The notes below the pieces were generated by a model, which made no database searches, was not told the DNA's origin, and saw nothing but the letters and a program-made list of their open reading frames with translations. Position numbers and translations under genes: made by a program. 64,000 nucleotides of DNA from a virus, in IMG/VR virus record IMGVR_UViG_3300048924_000151, positions 3,285 through 67,284 of that record; one strand, given 5' to 3'. Positions 3,008 to 52,107 of this stretch are shown piece by piece; position 1 is the stretch's first letter, and every line of letters begins with the position of its first letter.

Positions 3008-3573
3008 GTCACTTCTCCGGGTTGCTCATTGCGGATATCGAATGCTGGTCCGCAATAATCGTTTCTAGGCGAACATACGCCCGTACTAATAGACTTGCCA
3101 GCATCATGGCCATCGAGAGCATCGTCAGACGATACATCATCGCACCAAATGACACGAGCCTTAAGGCGAAAGCTTATGTTGATAGAGTATTGATCGCTAT
3201 CAACTTCCATCGAAATTATTTCAATGCGCTCTCTTGAAGGGCCACTATACATCCCCAAATGCGCAAAGAACTTATTTCGAAGGGCCTCATAATCGTAAAA
3301 CGCCCAAAAAGGCGTCTCGCTGCCGTCCGCACGCTTGTACCTTACCGTCTCTAGCATAAACTCTGCGATGAAGTCGTCAGCTATTTTAATAGAGCCGCGA
3401 GAATTTTGCCAGACGTGATCGATATCGGCACGCATGAGCGCCACAATGCACGTTGGCAAAGTGGGCATGTTTTCTTTCGTGATAGTTGCTTCCGATACAG
3501 CGAGCGCGCGACCCTTCAATTCCGGAAACCAGATTGCAATATTCGCTGCGAGGTCAGGGAGCAAAGCCGACAT
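3004..3573 (-). CDS. Tail terminator/completion protein
   Basis: 189 aa, synteny between neck genes and sheath. Confidence 0.6.
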   Translation of the reverse strand: MSALLPDLAANIAIWFPELKGRALAVSEATITKENMPTLPTCIVALMRADIDHVWQNSRGSIKIADDFIAEFMLETVRYKRADGSETPFWAFYDYEALRNKFFAHLGMYSGPSRERIEIISMEVDSDQYSINISFRLKARVIWCDDVSSDDALDGHDAGKSISTGVCSPRNDYCGPAFDIRNEQPGEVT

Positions 3574-37042: not shown

Positions 37043-37696
37043 ATGCCAATCTCAGAAAAGTCCGATCCGAACCAGTGGCCCGACCGCTTCCTTGTGATAC
37101 TTGCGCATGCGATGCATCGCGCTGAGCTCGCAGAGAACGCTGGCGAGACGCCCGATTACAACATCCTTCCTCCGCCGCCTGAGGCTGACAAACGCGGAGA
37201 TGTGGATATATCTATCAACGCTATGTTACACATCGCCGTTTTGGAATTGGTACCCGGCGACGAAGGCGATGCATATTTTCGCGGCAAGCAAAAGGCCGTT
37301 ATAACGAAGCTTGCGCAGCAACTGATGAACGGTGAATTTCGCGGCATGGACCCGACGCCGGATATTCCTTTCGCAGCGCGCGATAGCGCAGCGCCGGGAC
37401 GCGTTGCATCCTACAGCGAGCCGCGCGCCCCGAAGGCCCCGCGCGAGCCTAGAGCAGAGCGCCCGGCGAGCGACGGCCCGAAGGCCCCGCGCGCATCCGC
37501 CCTAGGCGGCAAGACCCTGCACAGCCTATGCGCCCCCGGCGTTAACCCGCGCGCTGCGGGATCGCATGGGCATAAGTCATTCCAGATTATTCTGGATAGC
37601 CCCGGCATCGAACACAGCGCATACCTCGCAGCCGGGGGGCGACAGGCCGATCTGGCCTATAACGTAACCAAGGGCTTCGTTGAAATCCGCGACTAA
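37043..37696 (+). CDS. Hypothetical protein with C-terminal paralog domain (3/3)
   Basis: NPRAAGSHG...DLAYNVTKGFV. Confidence 0.65.
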   Translation: MPISEKSDPNQWPDRFLVILAHAMHRAELAENAGETPDYNILPPPPEADKRGDVDISINAMLHIAVLELVPGDEGDAYFRGKQKAVITKLAQQLMNGEFRGMDPTPDIPFAARDSAAPGRVASYSEPRAPKAPREPRAERPASDGPKAPRASALGGKTLHSLCAPGVNPRAAGSHGHKSFQIILDSPGIEHSAYLAAGGRQADLAYNVTKGFVEIRD

Positions 37697-37709
37697 AGGA
37701 ACCACACTC

Positions 37710-38246
37710 ATGAAGAAGATGCGATTTGATACAAGCAAGCCGATTGCGACCTCGCTTGAGTTCTTCAACGCGGCAATGAACAGGGAGGTAAAACCCCCCA
37801 ATCCGATAGGGGAGAAGGTCGGCGGGTTGTACCTGAACATCGGCGCAGGGACGAAGGAATTCCCGTGGGCAGTATCGATGCAACGACCGCAATGGAACGC
37901 GCCGGACCCGTTGCCCTACAGCGATAATGTTATCGATGGTATCGTGGCTCTGCATTTCTTTGAGCATCTCAGCGGGCGAGATGTACCGATCGTTCTCGCG
38001 GAATGCGCCCGCGTGCTTAAGTCGGGTGGCCTGATCAACATCGCCGTTCCGCATCGTGCAGGCGGAATGTCCGTGCAGGACTTGGATCATAAGTCGTTCT
38101 TCATGGAACGAACTTGGGACACATTGCTGAACAACGAATACTATCAGACGTTCGGCAATGAAATCCCGCTCTACATAAATTACAACTTGATCATGGGCGA
38201 CGAAGAACGTACCCTTACGGTATTCACCCAGATGCGAAAGCCTTGA
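37710..38246 (+). CDS. Class I SAM-dependent methyltransferase
   Basis: LNIGAG motif I; HFFEHL; ECARVLKSGG. Confidence 0.8.
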   Translation: MKKMRFDTSKPIATSLEFFNAAMNREVKPPNPIGEKVGGLYLNIGAGTKEFPWAVSMQRPQWNAPDPLPYSDNVIDGIVALHFFEHLSGRDVPIVLAECARVLKSGGLINIAVPHRAGGMSVQDLDHKSFFMERTWDTLLNNEYYQTFGNEIPLYINYNLIMGDEERTLTVFTQMRKP

Positions 38247-43521: not shown

Positions 43522-44165
43522 TGTCTACTATCAACGACATCGCGAAGATGGAAGAAGAACTGGCGTCGCTTCGTCTCGCTCGCCAGACCGACCAGCATAT
43601 GCTCTCCATGCAGGACTTCGAACTCCGAAGCCTCCGAAGCGACAACATCACGCTTCGCGGAAGGATTGAAGAAGAACTCATGCGGGGTCGGGAGCTTGAC
43701 ACCCTGCTCCGGACCCTCTCTGCGGGCCTCGTTTCCGGCCTTGCGATCTATGCGAACGGCCGGAATGCCGCCGCAGCCGCAAGGCAGGGCGCGTTAGAAC
43801 CGGAGCCGGGGGCCGAAGCCTGCCCGGAGCCGGAACCCCTCTCTACGGCCTTCTCCGCAGGGGCGGAACCGGAGGGAACCCCCCGTTTGGGTTCCGTCAT
43901 TCCGGACCCGGACCAGAGGGTTGTTCCGGAGGCCGTAGAGAGGTTTGCGCCCCGCAGGGTACTAGGCCCGCCTATGACGGCTATGGACGTTGCTACGGGC
44001 CTTCCTAGCCGCACCGTGCCCAGGCAAGTGGTCCAGCATCCTCTTGAAGAACGGTTGGCATTGGCAGCGGACGGCATCGGCAGGCCGCACCGTACCCCGA
44101 TACCGGGCGGACCGGAATTCGTTGATCAGGAATTGCCTCCTATGTTCCTGAGGAATTCGAAGTGA
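43521..44165 (+). CDS. Hypothetical coiled-coil/Pro-rich protein
   Basis: TAATG-coupled. Confidence 0.6.
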   Translation: MSTINDIAKMEEELASLRLARQTDQHMLSMQDFELRSLRSDNITLRGRIEEELMRGRELDTLLRTLSAGLVSGLAIYANGRNAAAAARQGALEPEPGAEACPEPEPLSTAFSAGAEPEGTPRLGSVIPDPDQRVVPEAVERFAPRRVLGPPMTAMDVATGLPSRTVPRQVVQHPLEERLALAADGIGRPHRTPIPGGPEFVDQELPPMFLRNSK

Positions 44166-45067
44166 GTTTTGTTGTCATCGGCGCAGGCATGGCGGGGCTT
44201 TTAGCTTCCGCCATGCTGAGAGGGGAATGCACAGGCGTCTATGAACGCGCGCCTTGCCTTCCTAATAATCACAGCGCGGTCCTTCGGTTTCGTTCCGCAG
44301 TCGTCGGAGATACCCTAGGCATCCCATTCAAGAAAGTGCGCGTCATCAAGGCCGTCCATCCTTATATAAATCCCATCGCTGAGGCGATTGCCTATTCTAT
44401 CAAGACCAATGGAACGGCATCTCTGCGCAGCAGCATCTCAGCGCGCGGTGAAGTCGATGATCGATATATCGCTCCAACTGATTTGGTAATGCAGATGGGC
44501 AGGATGTCGGTAGATAAGATCGTGTTCAGCGTCGATTTCAAGAACCAATTCGAAGGCCCGGTCATCAGCACTATGCCAATGCCGGTCCTTATGGAAGTTC
44601 TGGAGTATAAGCAGCGCGAGGCGTTTGATTTCGGTAGCTATAGCGGCACGAACATTATCGTCAAGCTTCGTAACTGTGACATTTATTCGACGCTGTATGT
44701 TCCCGACCCGGAAGTGCGTTACAACCGGGTATCTATAACCGGCGATGAAATGATCATCGAAATGCGCGGCACTATCGATGCGAGCGAAGTGCAAAAAATA
44801 ATCATCGATGCAATGCTAGGCTGTGGCTTTACAGAACCGGACTTTGCATTGTCTTACTCAGTGCGTGAGCAGCGTTACGCAAAGATACTTCCCATCGAGG
44901 ATGCAGCGCGCAAGCGCTTTATACAATGGGCATCTCGCGAGCGCGGTGTATTCTCTCTTGGTCGTTATGCGACTTGGAGGCCCGGATTGCTTATGGACGA
45001 TATAGTGAACGACGTTCGCGTCATTCAGAGAATAGCGCGCGACAACCACTCATACGATCACACTTAG
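44162..45067 (+). CDS. FAD-dependent oxidoreductase, UDP-galactopyranose-mutase-like
   Basis: N-terminal VIGAGMAG Rossmann motif plus VYER; C-terminal GRYATWR...MDD. Confidence 0.7.
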   Translation: MSFVVIGAGMAGLLASAMLRGECTGVYERAPCLPNNHSAVLRFRSAVVGDTLGIPFKKVRVIKAVHPYINPIAEAIAYSIKTNGTASLRSSISARGEVDDRYIAPTDLVMQMGRMSVDKIVFSVDFKNQFEGPVISTMPMPVLMEVLEYKQREAFDFGSYSGTNIIVKLRNCDIYSTLYVPDPEVRYNRVSITGDEMIIEMRGTIDASEVQKIIIDAMLGCGFTEPDFALSYSVREQRYAKILPIEDAARKRFIQWASRERGVFSLGRYATWRPGLLMDDIVNDVRVIQRIARDNHSYDHT

Positions 45068-45076
45068 GGAGCTATC

Positions 45077-45814
45077 ATGAACGTTCAGCTTATCGACTAT
45101 ACTGGATACGGCTCGCGCCATCCCGCAGACCACGCAGCCAATGTTCTTATCTTCACGAAGAACACCCGACTCAAGATGGAGCCGGACGGCGCAGCGCAGA
45201 TCGAACGATGGGACGCGGCTCGCAAGCTGGAAGAACTTACGTACATGGCGGCTACAATCCCGTCGTCGCACGAATTCGTCCATTATACGTTCTGCATTAC
45301 CGGCGTGTCGCGCGCTTTCACTCATCAATTCGTTCGCACGCGAACCGGTAGTTATGCACAGCAGACCATGCGCGTTCTCGATGTGTCCGGCTGGAGCTAT
45401 ACAACCGGTCCGACGTTGCACAATTTCGAAGGAACGTTTGAGCTTTGGGAGGATACGATGAAGACCATCGATCTTGCCTATCAAGAGCTCATTGCGAAAG
45501 GCGTATCAATCGAAGATGCGCGCGGCATCCTGCCGACGAATATCCAAACCAATATCGTCGCAGGCTTTAACCTTCGCACTCTCTGCGAACTTGTGCAGAA
45601 GCGTTCGTCTTCTCGCGTGCAGGGCGAATATCGCGATGTGCTTAACGGCATGCGCGCAGAGGCGATCCGTGTTCACCCGTTCGTGGAACTGTTTCTCAAT
45701 TCGACGCCGGTTAAAGCCGCTGACGATCTGGAGGCGCTTGTCCTTCAGCATATGCCTGCGGAGTTGCGCATCACGGCAGTCAAGCTTATCGACAAGTTGC
45801 GGAGCGCAGTCTAA
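45077..45814 (+). CDS. thyX: Flavin-dependent thymidylate synthase-like protein (divergent motif)
   Basis: HEF..YTF.ITGVSRAFTHQFVRTR..SYAQQTMR, EDARGILP, NLR. Confidence 0.8.
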   Translation: MNVQLIDYTGYGSRHPADHAANVLIFTKNTRLKMEPDGAAQIERWDAARKLEELTYMAATIPSSHEFVHYTFCITGVSRAFTHQFVRTRTGSYAQQTMRVLDVSGWSYTTGPTLHNFEGTFELWEDTMKTIDLAYQELIAKGVSIEDARGILPTNIQTNIVAGFNLRTLCELVQKRSSSRVQGEYRDVLNGMRAEAIRVHPFVELFLNSTPVKAADDLEALVLQHMPAELRITAVKLIDKLRSAV

Positions 45815-46305
45815 TGCCTGCAATCGTCGTTGATCTTGATGGCACGCTGAGCGATCATTCTCACCGTGCCCACCTCGCTATCAAGAGAGACTGGAACGCT
45901 TACAATGCTGCGGCGTATCTAGACCCGCCGCATAAAGAGGTCATCGAATTCCTAAAGGATGCGCGCGTTGGGTGCCCGGAATGCGAGCACATTCTGCTTA
46001 CGGCTCGCAGCGATGCGTGGTATATCCAGACCGGCGATTGGCTCAAGAACATCGGGGCAACGTCTCTGTTCGATACGCTGTTGATGCGCCCAAAAGATGA
46101 CATGCGCAGCGATGCGATCATAAAGCCACTTATGCTCATCGAGCATTTCGGCGGCAACATTGCACGGGCAAAAAGCGAAGTGCGGATGATACTTGAAGAC
46201 CGCACTACGGTTGTCAACGCTTGGCGCGAGATTGGCTTTAAGTGCTGGCAGGTCCGTGCAGATATCATGCACGAAGAAACGATTTACACTCAAGGCGGAG
46301 ATTGA
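45814..46305 (+). CDS. HAD-family phosphatase (T4 PNKP 3'-phosphatase-like)
   Basis: VDLDGTL, LTAR, LLMRP...K, EDR motifs. Confidence 0.85.
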   Translation: MPAIVVDLDGTLSDHSHRAHLAIKRDWNAYNAAAYLDPPHKEVIEFLKDARVGCPECEHILLTARSDAWYIQTGDWLKNIGATSLFDTLLMRPKDDMRSDAIIKPLMLIEHFGGNIARAKSEVRMILEDRTTVVNAWREIGFKCWQVRADIMHEETIYTQGGD

Positions 46306-46306
46306 A

Positions 46307-47926
46307 ATGTTAGTTCTTGGTTTGAAACTTACGCATGACGGCGCTGTCGCGATTATGGACGGCAGGCGTCTAGTCGGCGCAATTGAGATGGAGAAGGTGG
46401 AGAACCGCCCCCGCCACTCGCATTGCAGGGGGATGGCTGACGTTGAGCAGGCCGTTCGTATGTTCGGCTATGAGGTGGGAGATTTTGATATCATATCTAT
46501 CGATGGTTGGTCATCTGGCATTATCCCCGGATGGAACGACCTGCAAGTCAATGAATACGTTGATAATGAAAATTGCGAACGATATATCGAATGCAAAGGG
46601 TTCGCAGGTTTTGGACATGATTATATTTCCTACACTCATGTGCAGAACCATATATCGTCGGCCTTCCGCACTCACCCCGATGCGCCGGAAGAAGCCTATT
46701 GTATTGTATGGGATGGCGGAATTGGACCCACAGTATTCAAAGTCACGAACTACGGGACTGTATACATCGGCCGCATTCATGATTTCGTCGGTTCCGTCTA
46801 CTCGATTATGGCCCGATACTATGGGCCGTTCAAGGATCAAGCGTACATCGATGCTACGCCGGATCAGATCGTAATGGATCGCATGAAGGGCGGATACGAT
46901 GTGCCCGGAAAGCTTATGGCTTGGATCGCGAACGGAAAGCCCGACTACGGCGTTGTTCATGCAATCAATAAAGAGCTCATCGATCATGCGATGCCTAGCA
47001 GGCTGCCTCAGCCTTTGGCAGAGCATGGGTTCGCAAGGGCGCTTGGCTCTTACAACTACGGCACCGATGCCGATCTAATGCTCAACGCGCATCTTGCTTT
47101 GCAGCAGTCTTTGGTCGAAGGCGCTACGCAATTGATCCCAAAAGGATCACATCTTATGTTTGTTGGCGGAAGCGCGCTTAATATCAAATGGAATTCTGCG
47201 CTTCGAAATACGGGACGCTTTGCAAGTGTATGGGTCCCACCTTTCCCGAATGATGCGGGCTCGGCTATCGGCGCTGCGATGTCGGTCGTCGGGCCGACGA
47301 TGGGCAATGCATCGTGGAACGTGTTCAGCGGACCCGGTGTGAACTTCACGATGGAGCGCGGGACGCAATTAGGATGGGAATGCCGAGATGCTACGCCTTC
47401 TGAGGTAGCAGCCATCCTAGAAGATAATGCCTCAGTCGTTCTGGTGATGGACGGCAGGGCAGAGTTGGGTCCACGCGCACTAGGAAACCGTAGCTTGATT
47501 TCATCGGCAGTCGAAGCCGGCATGAAGGATCGATTGAATTACATGAAGAAGCGCGAGGGCTACAGACCGGTATCTCCGATCTGTATTGAAGACGAAGCGA
47601 AAAGCTGGTTTTCTCCGGGGACCCCTGATCCATACATGCTGTTCGAGCACGTAGCGAAAAATCTGGCGGTCAAGAATTGTCCGGCTATTGTGCATACGGA
47701 TGGAACGTCTCGTTTACAGACTATCGGAATTGATGTAGACACGACGGCCGCAAAAATTCTTCGAGCCTATCACAAGCGCACCGGCCTGCCGATCCTTTGC
47801 AATACGTCGGCAAACGATCTAGGCTGCGGCTTCTTTGCTGATACCGCGACCGCACTTGCATGGTGCCAGAAGAACGATTGCGATCATATGTATAGTAGCG
47901 GATTGCTATTCACGAGAAAAGTATGA
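46307..47926 (+). CDS. nodU: NodU/CmcH-family O-carbamoyltransferase
   Basis: GLKLTHDGAVA, WDGG, GGSALNIKWNSAL, VPPFPNDAGSAIGAA, ELGPRALGNRS, HTDGTSRLQT, LCNTSAN. Confidence 0.88.
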   Translation: MLVLGLKLTHDGAVAIMDGRRLVGAIEMEKVENRPRHSHCRGMADVEQAVRMFGYEVGDFDIISIDGWSSGIIPGWNDLQVNEYVDNENCERYIECKGFAGFGHDYISYTHVQNHISSAFRTHPDAPEEAYCIVWDGGIGPTVFKVTNYGTVYIGRIHDFVGSVYSIMARYYGPFKDQAYIDATPDQIVMDRMKGGYDVPGKLMAWIANGKPDYGVVHAINKELIDHAMPSRLPQPLAEHGFARALGSYNYGTDADLMLNAHLALQQSLVEGATQLIPKGSHLMFVGGSALNIKWNSALRNTGRFASVWVPPFPNDAGSAIGAAMSVVGPTMGNASWNVFSGPGVNFTMERGTQLGWECRDATPSEVAAILEDNASVVLVMDGRAELGPRALGNRSLISSAVEAGMKDRLNYMKKREGYRPVSPICIEDEAKSWFSPGTPDPYMLFEHVAKNLAVKNCPAIVHTDGTSRLQTIGIDVDTTAAKILRAYHKRTGLPILCNTSANDLGCGFFADTATALAWCQKNDCDHMYSSGLLFTRKV

Positions 47927-48324
47927 AGTCAGTTCCCGAAATGCTAGAGACGGCAGCGGAGACCTATCGGGATCGCAACGCCGTCTACGGTGACGACTAT
48001 AAAAAGATTGGCGCGATGTATGTCGCGCTTTTCCCGAATGGCCTGACAGTAAAAACCGCAGACGACTGGCAGCGCCTCGCGCTGCTTATGGCCGCAGTCG
48101 GCAAGATGCGACGCTACACGAACAACTTCGAAAGCGGGGGGCATGCTGACAGCCTGCTTGACCTCGCCGTATATTCGACTATGCTAAAGGAATTGGACGA
48201 ATGCGCGCTATCATCTTCGACACAGAAACGACAGGCCTCCTCAAAAAGAAAGCAGCGCCGCTCAACACGCAACCAAGTGTCATCGAGTTTTACGGATGTG
48301 CGGTTGATCATACCGGTGAAGTAA
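47923..48324 (+). CDS. All-alpha nucleotide pyrophosphatase-like (nucleotide-modification-associated) protein
   Basis: RNAVYGD...KMRRY...HADSLLDLAVY. Confidence 0.6.
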   Translation: MKSVPEMLETAAETYRDRNAVYGDDYKKIGAMYVALFPNGLTVKTADDWQRLALLMAAVGKMRRYTNNFESGGHADSLLDLAVYSTMLKELDECALSSSTQKRQASSKRKQRRSTRNQVSSSFTDVRLIIPVK

Positions 48325-48734
48325 TCGACGTTTACGAAACGCTGATAAAACCACCGGAAAAGATCGCGCCTATCATCACGCAAATCACAGGCATCACGAA
48401 CGAGATGCTGGAAGACGCACCCCCCTTCTCGTTCGTTGCGCCAAAGATCAAGAAGTTTTTGGAAGGCGGAGAGCGCGTTGTCGCTCACAATCTTTCATTC
48501 GATGTGGGTATGATCGATAACGAATTCGAAAGGCTTACGCAAGCACTTGCGTGGCCGAAGGTTAGAACTTGTACGGTCGAGCAGTTGGAGTTCATCAAGG
48601 GGCATCGGATGAAGCTGGCTGACTTATACAACTACTTTTTCCCCGGAGAGACTTACGGCGCGCATAGGGCGAAGGCAGACGTTGTTGCGCTTACCCGGAT
48701 TTATCGTGAATGCTTGGTGCGCAATTGGCTCTAG
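48201..48734 (+). CDS. dnaQ: DEDDh 3'-5' exonuclease (Pol III epsilon-like)
   Basis: DTETTG, AHNLSFD, HRAKAD. Confidence 0.9.
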   Translation: MRAIIFDTETTGLLKKKAAPLNTQPSVIEFYGCAVDHTGEVIDVYETLIKPPEKIAPIITQITGITNEMLEDAPPFSFVAPKIKKFLEGGERVVAHNLSFDVGMIDNEFERLTQALAWPKVRTCTVEQLEFIKGHRMKLADLYNYFFPGETYGAHRAKADVVALTRIYRECLVRNWL

Positions 48735-49168
48735 CGTTTCCTCCTAGGCGCGGGTTTAAGCTGGCAGACCCGGAAGACCCTGACCACCCCGGCGTCGATG
48801 AGCATACGTATCGCATATTGCTCACCGACGATCCAAACGGCCTTTGCGCGATAGTCGATGCGATAGACTACTGGTGGGCATGCCAATGGCGCTGGCATAA
48901 TCATCCGAGCAATCCGAACGGCAACAGGGTAGTTAAGAACTATGCGAGGCGCGCGCCTAGAGGCAGTCGAGATAGCAACGAAGGCGGCGCGCCAACTCAA
49001 ATATACCTGCACAAAGCCATCTTAATTCGGATGGGTGCGCCGCAGCCGACCGAGTATCATACAATAGGAGATCACCAAGACGGGGATAGCCTAAACTGCC
49101 GACGATATAACCTAGAGTGGAATACTCTCTCTGGTAATGCGCAAACTGCGAAGCGAAAGAAACGATGA
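48710..49168 (+). CDS. HNH homing-endonuclease-like protein
   Basis: YLHKAIL...GDHQDGDSLNCRRYNL. Confidence 0.7.
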   Translation: MLGAQLALAFPPRRGFKLADPEDPDHPGVDEHTYRILLTDDPNGLCAIVDAIDYWWACQWRWHNHPSNPNGNRVVKNYARRAPRGSRDSNEGGAPTQIYLHKAILIRMGAPQPTEYHTIGDHQDGDSLNCRRYNLEWNTLSGNAQTAKRKKR

Positions 49169-52107
49169 CCTTTCAGAGCATTCGATACCGTACTGGCTTT
49201 AGCTTCCGAGCCGCGACCGGGCACATCGATGAAGTGCTCAATCGCATCATCGAGACCGGCGCGAAGGTCGCGCCTATAACGGATCGATCCAGCACATTCG
49301 GATTTAACAAATGGTCGAAGGCTTGCAAGAAAAAGGGCATTCGTCCCGTATACGGGATCGAACTTGCTGTTAGCGTTGATCCTGTAGCAAAGAAGCCTGT
49401 GATCGATTATTGGACTTTTATTTCATATAGTGACATCAAAGAAATCAATCGTCTTCTAGCCGTAGCGACTGCTCAGTTTAGGTATACAAACGTACTATCG
49501 TATGAGCAGGCTCTGGAAGCTGATTGCTTTAAAATCGTCGGGCATCGCAGCGACGTTGCGAGGATCGTTACAGCGAGCGGCCCTAAAGGCCCCCTTAACA
49601 CCTACTATGCCCTAGGGCCTGCCGTAAGCAGGGGCTACGTTGCGCAGATGCGGGAAGCAGGGATAAACCCCGCCGCATCCGGAGACAACATCTATCCGAC
49701 GAAGCGCCGAGAGGCGCAGGCTGAAATCATTCTAGGTCGCGGCTTTAGCTCGCAATCGTACCCCCAGCATATATTGAGCGAAGACGAATGGCTGGATAGT
49801 ATTGCGCATTTAGATATGAGTGCAGAGGAAATCGCAGCGGCCATTTATAACACAGAAGACATCCTAGAGCATAGCACTTCTCATATGGTGCTATCTGAAT
49901 TTATGATACCTGAAAAGCCGGAGACCTTGCGCGCGATGTGCGAGAGGGGGGCGGCCAAGCTAGGTGTCGATCTTACGAATGAAGTATACAAGGAACGATT
50001 AGATCGCGAGCTTATGCTTATCGATGTAAAAGGATATGACAACTACTTCTATATCGTTGCCGATCTTGTATCATGGGCTCGCGAAAGAATGCTAGTCGGC
50101 CCAGCGCGCGGTTCTAGCTGCGGCTCACTGGTATGCTATCTGCTGGGCATAACGATGGTAGACCCTATCCCTTACGGACTTCTGTTTGAGCGTTTCGTCG
50201 ATATCAATCGTATGGATATGCCAGATATCGACATCGACTTTGCCGATCAAAAACGGCATCTCGTTGAAGAATATGCAGCAGATAAATACGGCATCGATCA
50301 CGTTGCGCGCCTAGGCACCGTCAATATGTTCAAGGCCCGTTCAGCTTTGCAAACTACTTGCATGGAATTAAACGTGCCTCGTTGGAAGGCAGATAAGGCT
50401 CTGGACGCGCTCGTCAAGCGTTCGTCAGCAGACGCCCGCGCGATGGATACTCTTATCGATACCCTATCTCTTACGGATGCAGGCAAAGAGCTTGTCAGTG
50501 AGCATCCTGAAATTGTACCGGTGTTGGAAGGGTTCGAAGGCCACCCCCGCCATGCAGGCCAGCACGCGGCAGGTATCGTTATTTCAAAGACGCCAATTCG
50601 TGATACCGTCGCAATCGATAGCAGGACCGGCGCAACGCAATGTGATAAGAAGGATGCGGAAGAACTGAACCTGCTTAAGATAGACGCCCTTGGTCTCGTT
50701 CAGCTATCGATCTTTGAAGACTGCCTTGCGCTCGCCGGATTGCCTAAGAAACATCTTGATACAATTTCATATGATGATCCTGCTGCATATGCAGTGCTAA
50801 ACAATTCTCAGTTCGCAGGCATCTTTCAGTACAACGGGAAGGCGCTGCAATACCTCGCCAATTATATCAAGTCTGATAACCTTGAAGACATCATCTCTGT
50901 TACAGCCCTTGCGCGCCCCGGCCCTCTAGCATCTGGCGGCGCAAACGAGTGGGCACGGCGACGGATCGGAGCAGACCCGGTAACGTATCCGCATCCCGTA
51001 TTCGAAAGCCATCTCAAGAATTCTCTAGGGGTTATCATCTATCAAGAGCAGGTGATGACCATCGGCCGCGACATCGGAGATATGAACTGGGAGGAAGTGA
51101 CCCAAGTTCGTAAGGCTATGGCTAAGTCGATGGGCAAGGAATACTTTAACCAATTCGGAGATAAGTGGAAGATCGGTGCCATGAAAAAAGGCATCAGCAA
51201 AGAAGTAGCTGACACAGTATGGGATCAGCTTTGCGCATACGGCGCATGGTCGTTCAACCGTTCGCATTCGGTCGCATACGGAATGATCAGCTATCAATGC
51301 TGCTGGCTTAAGGCGCACTATCCTCTAGAGTTCGCAGCAGCGACTTTGCAACATGCGCACGATACAGAACTGCAACTGAAGCTCCTCCGTGAGATCGTGA
51401 GTGAAGGCCACAACTACATCCCCGTAGATGCCGAGCAATCGACTAACAGATGGACTGTCGGCGTTCGTGGGCCGAACAAGATGCGCGTTCTAGTCGGCCC
51501 GTTGCAGAACGTTAAAGGCATTGGCCCGAAAGGCGTAGTCAAAGTTATATCGGCGCGTGCATCCGGAAAGAAGTTGACTGGCCGTGAAGCAAAGCTATTA
51601 GAGAACCCAGTTACTCCTCTGGACAGCCTGTTCCCTATCCGCGATGCATTCCGCAAGTATCTTCCGGACCCGAAAGCGCGTAACATATTCACCGAGCCGA
51701 CGAAGATAATCGACATCCAATGTGTGCCGAAGAACAAGGCCGACGAAGAACATCTAGTCTTTTGCGTATTGGCTCGCATCGCACCGCGCGACGAAAACGA
51801 TTTGCAGAACGTCGCAAAGCGCGGATACGAATTGCGCGGACCAACGCAAGCGTTGAACTTGCGCATCATGGATGATACAGACGTCTTATTCGCAAAGATT
51901 AATCGCATGGACTATGAAAGGATCGGCGCAGAAATCGTAGAGCGGGGGGTTCCACTTAAACATCTGTACGTTCTAAAGGGCACTGTGCGTAGCGGTCTTG
52001 ATTTTAGAATGTTCAATGTTAAAGCGGCACGCTATATCTGCCCTATCGGCGGCGTCGAAGAACCGAAGCCTGTGAAGGTGAAAAAGACTAAGCAGCAAGA
52101 CGACTAG
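49165..52107 (+). CDS. dnaE: DNA polymerase III alpha subunit (family C)
   Basis: GPARGS, RMDMPDIDIDF, QHAAG, LLKIDALG, YQEQ, FNRSHS, WLKAHYP. Confidence 0.95.
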   Translation: MTFQSIRYRTGFSFRAATGHIDEVLNRIIETGAKVAPITDRSSTFGFNKWSKACKKKGIRPVYGIELAVSVDPVAKKPVIDYWTFISYSDIKEINRLLAVATAQFRYTNVLSYEQALEADCFKIVGHRSDVARIVTASGPKGPLNTYYALGPAVSRGYVAQMREAGINPAASGDNIYPTKRREAQAEIILGRGFSSQSYPQHILSEDEWLDSIAHLDMSAEEIAAAIYNTEDILEHSTSHMVLSEFMIPEKPETLRAMCERGAAKLGVDLTNEVYKERLDRELMLIDVKGYDNYFYIVADLVSWARERMLVGPARGSSCGSLVCYLLGITMVDPIPYGLLFERFVDINRMDMPDIDIDFADQKRHLVEEYAADKYGIDHVARLGTVNMFKARSALQTTCMELNVPRWKADKALDALVKRSSADARAMDTLIDTLSLTDAGKELVSEHPEIVPVLEGFEGHPRHAGQHAAGIVISKTPIRDTVAIDSRTGATQCDKKDAEELNLLKIDALGLVQLSIFEDCLALAGLPKKHLDTISYDDPAAYAVLNNSQFAGIFQYNGKALQYLANYIKSDNLEDIISVTALARPGPLASGGANEWARRRIGADPVTYPHPVFESHLKNSLGVIIYQEQVMTIGRDIGDMNWEEVTQVRKAMAKSMGKEYFNQFGDKWKIGAMKKGISKEVADTVWDQLCAYGAWSFNRSHSVAYGMISYQCCWLKAHYPLEFAAATLQHAHDTELQLKLLREIVSEGHNYIPVDAEQSTNRWTVGVRGPNKMRVLVGPLQNVKGIGPKGVVKVISARASGKKLTGREAKLLENPVTPLDSLFPIRDAFRKYLPDPKARNIFTEPTKIIDIQCVPKNKADEEHLVFCVLARIAPRDENDLQNVAKRGYELRGPTQALNLRIMDDTDVLFAKINRMDYERIGAEIVERGVPLKHLYVLKGTVRSGLDFRMFNVKAARYICPIGGVEEPKPVKVKKTKQQDD

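Follow-up and report, generated by a model that had tools for sequence, protein, structure and literature searches.

What does a NodU-like carbamoyltransferase gene do in a tailed phage, and did it get there from a rhizobium? NodU is the rhizobial Nod-factor 6-O-carbamoyltransferase, which acts on the non-reducing N-acetylglucosamine, and rhizobial nodU genes were found on symbiosis plasmids, in nodABC-nodS-nodU-nodIJ clusters. To our knowledge, phage carbamoyltransferases are widespread, and the substrate is known for only one of them, which acts on 5-hydroxymethylcytosine (5hmC). The gene studied here, which codes for the protein P0001, lies in a stretch of 64,000 nucleotides (hereafter the window), positions 3,285 to 67,284 of the IMG/VR record IMGVR_UViG_3300048924_000151. 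The record is complete, with 67,284 bp, direct terminal repeats and a CheckV completeness estimate of 100%. Its genome is that of a tailed phage, with genes for the large and small terminase subunits, portal, prohead protease and capsid and with Mu/P2-like baseplate genes, and a long plus-strand gene block holds its replication and nucleotide-metabolism genes. An initial annotation had proposed either a symbiosis gene exchanged with phage or an enzyme whose natural acceptor is a sugar hydroxyl, which would fit a glycosylated base. The analysis reported here points to a NodU-like O-carbamoyltransferase of a phage lineage with a nucleotide- or DNA-linked hydroxyl as its acceptor, a statement to which, as a whole, we give a probability of roughly 45%.

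The family of P0001 was determined by profile searches. Both domains of the NodU/CmcH/TobZ carbamoyltransferase family were detected above their gathering scores, Carbam_trans_N (Pfam PF02543) with an E value of 5e-43 and 148.3 bits against a cut-off of 24, and Carbam_trans_C (PF16861) with 3.4e-41 and 141.1 bits against a cut-off of 27; P0001 is therefore a member of this family. PHROG 1601, 'Nol-like carbamoyltransferase', also matched it over its full length (E 4.6e-67). The four motifs quoted in the initial annotation were all present in the translation: KLTHDGA (residues 7-13), LNIKWNSALRNTGRFASVWVPPFPND (291-316), PGTPDPYMLF (437-446) and LCNTSANDLGCGFF (497-510). A 23-sequence alignment showed these motifs in rhizobial NodU, in NodU-like proteins from outside the rhizobia and in the phage clade described below; other residues stood at these places in one NolO-like protein, in carbamoyltransferases of the generic bacterial type (three) and of other phages (three), and in one 5hmC-carbamoyltransferase-like protein. 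Outside the NodU-like clade, NTSFN was found in place of CNTSAN and HHxAH in place of SYxHxxxH.

P0001 retains every invariant column of a 33-sequence alignment, including H10, D11, H111, H115, D136, D316, R390, K414, R416, R420 and N499-S501, and both GPRALGNRS and NTS (499-501) are kept. H111, H115, D136, D316, GPRALGNRS, K414/R416/R420 and the NTS positions make up the putative metal site and ATP/carbamoyl-phosphate site, as assigned from the TobZ structure. When the sequences of the solved structures of TobZ, GdmN, the novobiocin carbamoyltransferase (NovN) and 7xb6 were compared with P0001, only the C-terminal half aligned, the first three giving 77-100 bits. Since the invariant residues are intact and this half aligns with TobZ, P0001 is likely, judging from its sequence, to be an active enzyme.

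The likeness to NodU itself was measured with the NodU model of NCBIfam (NF041651), an equivalog with a curated cut-off of 1000 bits. This model was the sole NCBIfam match of P0001, which it covered over the full length at 421.2 bits (E 7e-126). Five rhizobial NodU proteins scored 1018-1114 bits, four non-rhizobial NodU-like proteins (from Streptomyces, Chitinophaga, Noviherbaspirillum and Paenibacillus) 637-710 bits and four other phage-clade proteins 404-528 bits; single sequences of a Ralstonia 'nodU', a NolO-like protein, a cyanophage enzyme and a 5hmC-carbamoyltransferase-like protein gave 266, 177, 157 and 75 bits, respectively. Aligned end to end with rhizobial NodU, P0001 was 36-39% identical (E down to 2e-99). 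No nodS, nodC, nodI or nodJ gene was found beside the phage gene, whose neighbours are ThyX, HAD, DUF6378 and Pol III genes. P0001 is not a NodU orthologue, as it scores below the equivalog cut-off, falls outside the rhizobial clade and lacks a nod-cluster context. That it is NodU-like, rather than of the generic, NolO, TobZ or 5hmC-carbamoyltransferase type, was borne out by the model score, the motif alignment and the trees (CmcH sequences lay outside the motif alignment and the comparisons).

Relatives of P0001 were then sought widely. Its best matches among 5.8 billion proteins reached 41% identity at most. A scan of one genome per prokaryotic species, queried with signature peptides of the clade, returned 488 relatives among 514 pattern matches, and the best 80 of the 488 were 34-41% identical to P0001. 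These 80 were held by Actinomycetota, Bacteroidota, Bacillota, Pseudomonadota (including rhizobia), Melainabacteria and Verrucomicrobiota; nodC lay within 6 kb in only 4 of the 80 bacterial loci. Because the best 80 relatives span many phyla at 34-41%, rhizobia are one among many equally distant holders. In IMG/VR, a scan with P0001 as single query gave no match, and an alignment-based scan detected 24 loci coding for homologues at 32-44% identity, five of them near-duplicates of others.

Two data sets were used for the phylogeny. The first tree (77 rows; LG+C20 with posterior mean site frequencies, PMSF; support by the Shimodaira-Hasegawa-like approximate likelihood ratio test, SH-aLRT) contained 17 of the 24 IMG/VR loci, without the partial L019, L021 and L023 and the near-duplicates L009, L012, L022 and L024. 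A NodU-like clade comprised 65 of the 77 rows with a support of 99. A phage/metagenome clade of 43 rows, also supported at 99, gathered the window, 16 of the 17 IMG/VR proteins and 26 of the 27 metagenome proteins, and its sister was a Noviherbaspirillum/Chitinophaga/Saprospiraceae group (support 91). NolO-like, cyanophage, pelagiphage, XacN1 and 5hmC-type proteins fell outside the NodU-like clade. The other data set, of 70 rows and analysed under LG+G4, lacked the long-branch outgroups as well as 15 of the 27 metagenome rows; in it, named proteins were swapped for genome loci and the near-duplicates L086 and L111 were dropped. In a careful tree of these rows, the phage/metagenome clade (29 rows) was recovered at 96/88 and rhizobial NodU (9 rows) was monophyletic at 100/100. 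In a quick tree of the same rows, the NodU-like clade (66 of 70 rows) had a support of 100, and rhizobial NodU stood within a bacterial clade, adjoining an actinobacterial group (98). Phage proteins and rhizobial NodU each make up a monophyletic clade, and neither clade is sister to the other; forcing the two together was 38.4 log-likelihood units worse, with p 0.038 in the approximately unbiased (AU) test. The partner of the window inside the phage clade was unstable, being L013 in the first and careful trees and L015/L017 in the quick tree.

A phylogeny of the kind called for in the initial annotation placed P0001 inside the NodU-like clade, with the NolO-like proteins and a stand-in for the 5hmC type outside; the clustering with generic or phage 5hmC-type proteins that would have spoken against that annotation was not seen. 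We hold the assignment of P0001 to the family and to the phage clade with high confidence. The gene is very probably an old resident of the phage lineage, with no recent exchange with rhizobia; the idea of a symbiosis gene exchanged with phage is not supported by the identity to NodU, which is no higher than that to NodU-like proteins of other phyla, by the phage clade's own standing or by the AU test. One pair of contigs stood apart from the other viral loci. L020 and L024 carry a NodU-like gene (32% identity) with no module gene and have a high GC content, and their protein groups with Amycolatopsis and Actinokineospora proteins, outside the phage clade; they probably represent an actinophage, a prophage or a misbinned bacterial contig.

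The genes around the carbamoyltransferase form a module that begins with a flavoprotein gene and ends with the gene of the DNA polymerase III (Pol III) alpha subunit (Table 1).

Table 1. Positions in the window of the carbamoyltransferase gene, its module and the methyltransferase gene
Feature	Coordinates	Strand	Basis of assignment
Class I S-adenosylmethionine (SAM) methyltransferase	37680..38246	+	Pfam Methyltransf_11; PHROG 6636
FAD-type flavoprotein, small, phrog_4828, first gene of module	44162..45067	+	PHROG 4828 E 7e-51
Flavin-dependent thymidylate synthase ThyX	45077..45814	+	Pfam Thy1 E 1.3e-30; TIGR02170 82.3 bits vs cut-off 87.9
HAD phosphatase, PNKP-phosphatase type	45814..46305	+	Pfam HAD_PNKP E 2.4e-20; PHROG 415
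NodU-like O-carbamoyltransferase P0001, 539 aa	46307..47926	+	Kae1-like N domain and YrdC-like C domain; Pfam, NodU HMM, PHROG, trees
DUF6378-like helical protein	47923..48324	+	Pfam DUF6378 E 4.8e-4, below cut-off; PHROG 4889 E 4.3e-19
DnaQ/epsilon-like 3'-5' exonuclease	48201..48734	+	Pfam RNase_T E 3.6e-24; PHROG 192
DNA polymerase III alpha subunit, module end	49165..52107	+	Pfam DNA_pol3_alpha, finger and PHP domains

In the window, the genes from the flavoprotein through DUF6378 are separated by gaps of 0-9 nt or overlap. The longest open reading frame (ORF) of the carbamoyltransferase frame opens at TTG 46193. We took ATG 46307 as the true start because a GGAG lies 6 nt upstream of it, because it stands 1 nt past the stop of the upstream HAD gene and because it aligns with the N-termini of 32 homologues; by these signals it is the better start. 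At the other end, the carbamoyltransferase stop overlaps the DUF6378 start as ATGA, and the gene is predicted from this layout to be translationally coupled to both HAD and DUF6378. A search for tRNA genes found none, and isoelectric points did not discriminate between the groups.

Is this neighbourhood shared by the other viral loci? Genes of the window were compared by tblastn with the 24 IMG/VR loci, and ThyX was found in 18, the flavoprotein in 17, HAD in 12 and DUF6378, the exonuclease and Pol III alpha in 20 each, the last of these at 33-55% identity to that of the window. In 22 of the 24 loci, the carbamoyltransferase gene directly adjoins one or more genes of the module, the exceptions being L020 and L024. 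Its slot varies: it is located between flavoprotein and ThyX in L003, L004, L008 and L016, between HAD and DUF6378 in the window, L005, L013, L015 and L017, and next to the exonuclease in L001 and L014. L002 and L014 have the methyltransferase gene 1 bp away from it; L010, L011 and L023 also have that gene in the module, but not in contact with it. Pantoea phage Kyle and Burkholderia phage WTB have the same module without a carbamoyltransferase, as do, by gene matches, PB1-like, Wifcevirus, Serratia, Xanthomonas and some Rhizobium phages. The Pol III alpha of these isolate relatives is at most 37% identical to that of the window, and when the 6-kb region was searched by blastn against isolate phages, the single match covered 92 nt in ThyX. 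A literature search found no description of this lineage, nor of phage ThyX or Pol III modules that contain a carbamoyltransferase of the NodU-like kind.

On the reading that we prefer, the gene codes for a probably active O-carbamoyltransferase that uses ATP and carbamoyl phosphate and falls in the NodU-like branch of the NodU/CmcH/TobZ family. It belongs to a phage-specific lineage, long resident in the nucleotide-metabolism/replication module of uncultured myophages of about 55-70 kb, distant relatives of PB1-like, Wifcevirus and Kylevirus phages; the genes of the module follow one another as flavoprotein, ThyX, HAD phosphatase, DUF6378, epsilon-like exonuclease and Pol III alpha. By analogy with the family, the YrdC-like C domain would make carbamoyl-AMP, according to the scheme from TobZ, GdmN and NovN, and the Kae1-like N domain, whose metal site is of the His/His/Asp/Asp type, would move the carbamoyl group onto a hydroxyl. 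Judging only from the placement of the gene, this hydroxyl could be carried by a nucleotide, a nucleoside or the phage DNA, giving a carbamoylated nucleotide or base, and the pathway would be distinct from the pair of ThyA-hydroxymethylase and 5hmC carbamoyltransferase. A nucleotide- or DNA-linked hydroxyl is favoured because of the steady placement and tight coupling of the gene in the ThyX/HAD/DUF6378/Pol III module; we put it forward, tentatively, as the most likely acceptor. A more specific scenario, which we consider doubtful, is that a NodU-type enzyme was recruited to DNA or nucleotide metabolism independently of the 5hmC enzyme, by a route without a ThyA-type hydroxymethylase, the acceptor being provided by ThyX and the flavoprotein, which resembles UDP-galactopyranose mutase and renalase, or being a hydroxyl, on a sugar or at an end, that the HAD phosphatase lays bare. 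If so, a carbamoylated nucleotide or base would arise by a DNA or nucleotide modification pathway not described before.

Several observations weigh against a nucleotide or DNA acceptor and against the phage lineage as drawn above. No ThyA-like protein (PF00303) was detected in any of six complete genomes, those of the window and of five clade relatives, and the control genomes matched. No ThyX column separates 16 carbamoyltransferase-bearing genomes from 7 phages without the gene, and the RTR variant of ThyX occurs in both groups; a re-purposing of ThyX as a hydroxymethylase was rejected on these two grounds. The flavoprotein was found in 362 isolate phage records without a carbamoyltransferase, and the methyltransferase is likewise present in PB1-like phages that lack it. 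Three fused, longer forms of the carbamoyltransferase carry an aminotransferase, an SGNH-hydrolase or another domain, never a nucleotide-metabolism domain. In the trees, the bootstrap of the careful tree was not fully settled (correlation 0.981) and the branch of the window was long (1.4-1.5). Finally, the neighbourhood may reflect shared expression timing only.

The likeliest of the alternatives is that the enzyme is auxiliary, acts on an acceptor other than a nucleic acid (a host envelope glycan, a peptide hydroxyl or a small metabolite) and lies in the early/middle block by expression timing only. Bacterial contexts agree with it. We examined 15 NodU-like loci, in which 53 of the 97 called ORFs were scanned. 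Nonribosomal peptide synthetase or polyketide synthase (NRPS/PKS) genes or a thioesterase adjoin the gene in 7 of them (L044, L045, L053, L056, L064, L078 and L093), a CmlA-like beta-hydroxylase was present in 3, a second carbamoyltransferase in 3 and a carbamoyl-phosphate synthase in 1. With the Nod factor of rhizobia included, the acceptors of the NodU-like clade that are characterised or can be guessed from context are not nucleic acids. In addition, cyanophage and pelagiphage carbamoyltransferases lie beside sugar- or cofactor-metabolism genes, and neither the ThyA search in the six genomes nor the ThyX comparison revealed a partner enzyme that would make the acceptor. Against an auxiliary role, the gene stays within one module in 22 of 24 loci despite its changing slot, which is more than expected of a free-floating accessory gene, and in the window it is predicted to be coupled to HAD and DUF6378. 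We regard this alternative as possible, if on the unlikely side.

Non-rhizobial NodU-like genes (L047, L056, L081, L097 and others) were observed beside NRPS/PKS genes and genes for CmlA-like diiron beta-hydroxylases, many of them annotated as 'nodulation protein U', and non-rhizobial bacterial NodU-like enzymes probably O-carbamoylate beta-hydroxy amino acids in peptides. In a Melainabacteria metagenome-assembled genome, the NodU-like gene is beside both carbamoyl-phosphate synthase subunits. Since bacterial members adjoin NRPS/PKS and CmlA-like genes, the NodU-like clade appears to accept chemically diverse hydroxyls, and a sugar acceptor is not implied by the likeness to NodU. Glycosyltransferases of the GT1 and GT2 families were absent from the complete genome of the window and from three of the four relatives searched. 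With these two results, the sugar hydroxyl or glycosylated base put forward in the initial annotation lost its support. In the genome of L011 (G002), GT2 and GT1 genes (C1:31963-35124; L129 and L130) were observed about 18 kb from the carbamoyltransferase.

An improbable alternative is that the enzyme performs the known phage chemistry, carbamoylating 5hmC to give 5cmdC or the sugar of a glycosylated hydroxymethyl base. An enzyme of the same superfamily does so in other phages (PMC8670742), and the gene studied here also lies among nucleotide-metabolism genes. We compared the published enzyme through a stand-in, its evident homologue P0121, and the motifs common to both were read by eye. P0121 is a 611-aa 'hypothetical protein' of Bacteroides phage BF486P3 (L042:2053-3888), located two genes from a dCMP hydroxymethylase and dut. 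Its identity to P0001 is only about 25%, in an alignment of 243 residues (E 3e-6); the NodU model gives it 75 bits, and the first tree places it outside the NodU-like clade. The absence of a ThyA-type hydroxymethylase from all six genomes and the distribution of GT1 and GT2 also speak against this chemistry. A Tet_JBP search gave no match in the phage genomes, and none in the controls either. P0121-type matches were observed in six Bacteroides phage records, and Bacteroides isolates with such a protein probably carry 5-carbamoyloxymethylcytosine.

Most improbable is a recent exchange of a nodU symbiosis gene between rhizobia and a rhizobiophage, with either as donor: the full-length similarity to symbiosis-plasmid NodU, the NodU model as sole NCBIfam match and a root-metagenome DNA run as the only sequencing run containing the contig (probably the source sample itself, with no RNA run listed) are outweighed by a score of 421 bits against a cut-off that all five rhizobial NodU exceed, by NodU-like proteins of many phyla that are equally or more similar, by separate and non-sister clades (a marginal rejection at p 0.038), by a neighbourhood without nod genes and with a methyltransferase that is not NodS-like, and by a divergence in the phage clade (32-44%) about as deep as that of Pol III alpha (33-55%). 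A NodS-NodU-like pair made of the methyltransferase and the carbamoyltransferase was also considered and rejected, as BLASTP detected no similarity of the former to NodS and it occurs in PB1-like phages without the latter. The phage methyltransferase showed no BLASTP similarity to that of HTVC008M.

We also looked at the other genes of the module. The AlphaFold2 (AF2) model of the flavoprotein (predicted local distance difference test, pLDDT, 83) gave Foldseek matches to UDP-galactopyranose mutase, L-amino-acid oxidase and renalase at E about 1e-9, and a profile search of PDB sequences matched only the N-terminal dinucleotide-binding motif (E at least 0.027). The isolate records with the flavoprotein (362) and those with the ThyX subtype of the window (363) are almost the same ones, for the most part from PB1-like Pseudomonas phages. 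The flavoprotein may serve ThyX as its own partner, for instance by handling flavin or NAD(P)H. The ThyX motif RHR...S reads RTR...T in the window, and most relatives have RTR, RSR or RNR, whether or not they carry the carbamoyltransferase. In cyanophage S-RIM44 (L043:1885-4140), ThyX immediately precedes a carbamoyltransferase gene from another branch, annotated as two pieces (546 and 1014 nt), and the same adjacency was found in Sf-CH3. This is a second, independent neighbourhood of ThyX and a carbamoyltransferase.

HAD_PNKP and DUF6378 form one protein in WTB (577 aa, L026:10205-11938) and in Kyle (366 aa, L025:9929-11029); in the window each has its own gene, and the place between the two is taken by the carbamoyltransferase gene. 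The middle part of the WTB fusion was tried as a carbamoyltransferase homologue and showed no homology. For DUF6378, the AF2 model had a pLDDT of 90, Foldseek gave no match at E of 0.001 or below and VIA-align found only generic helical bundles (Z at most 7.5); a MazG-like fold was thus shown by neither program. The DUF6378 and exonuclease ORFs overlap by 124 nt in different frames, the C-terminal tail of DUF6378 being predicted as a long helix with many K, R, S and Q residues, and the boundary of one of these genes may be miscalled. Between the exonuclease and Pol III alpha, a 152-aa ORF (48710-49168) has a weak HNH_3 match (E 0.0036) and a counterpart in none of the 24 loci; it is probably a homing-endonuclease insertion.

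These results define a second, phage-specific NodU-type lineage of 17 viral rows (16 IMG/VR loci and the window) and dozens of metagenome proteins, fixed in the ThyX-to-Pol III module and for which no hydroxymethylase partner was found. Should its acceptor be a nucleotide or DNA, the lineage would mark a modification of bases or nucleotides that is new, useful for anti-restriction biology and for labelling DNA enzymatically. If the acceptor is of another kind, a misreading is still corrected, since 'NodU-like' should be read here neither as a sign of symbiosis-gene traffic nor as a pointer to a sugar acceptor.

How does P0001 compare with carbamoyltransferases already described? According to Yang et al. 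(2021, eLife; PMC8670742), a phage enzyme of the same family carbamoylates 5hmC in DNA and in deoxynucleoside triphosphates, uses carbamoyl phosphate and ATP and is paired with a ThyA-like dCMP hydroxymethylase; the study lists 62 carbamoyltransferase genes with their contigs, among which there may be NodU-type members. Like P0001, it is phage-encoded, of the same superfamily and located among nucleotide-metabolism genes. P0001 differs from it in belonging to another branch, as judged through the stand-in P0121, and in the lack of a ThyA-like dCMP hydroxymethylase in the six genomes. TobZ, GdmN and NovN share with P0001 the YrdC-like C domain and the C-terminal part of the Kae1-like domain (E 1e-20 to 1e-27), whereas their N-terminal half cannot be aligned with it by sequence and their HHxAH corresponds to SYxHxxxH in the NodU-like clade. 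The 'Nol-like carbamoyltransferase' auxiliary genes of cyanophages and pelagiphages (PHROG 1601) are phage-borne, as is the P0001 gene; the isolate proteins are at most 29% identical to P0001, fall outside the NodU-like clade with NolO-like proteins and come from T4-like genomes of 147-252 kb, in gene contexts other than the ThyX-Pol III module. NodU (NF041651) is like P0001 in its two-domain architecture and in the motifs KLTHDGA, ALNIKWNSALR...VWVPPFPND, PGTPDPYMLF and LCNTSAN..G.GFF. Unlike NodU, P0001 scores 421 bits against 1000 on the NodU model, belongs to a separate clade and has, in place of nod neighbours, a phage module that runs from ThyX to Pol III.

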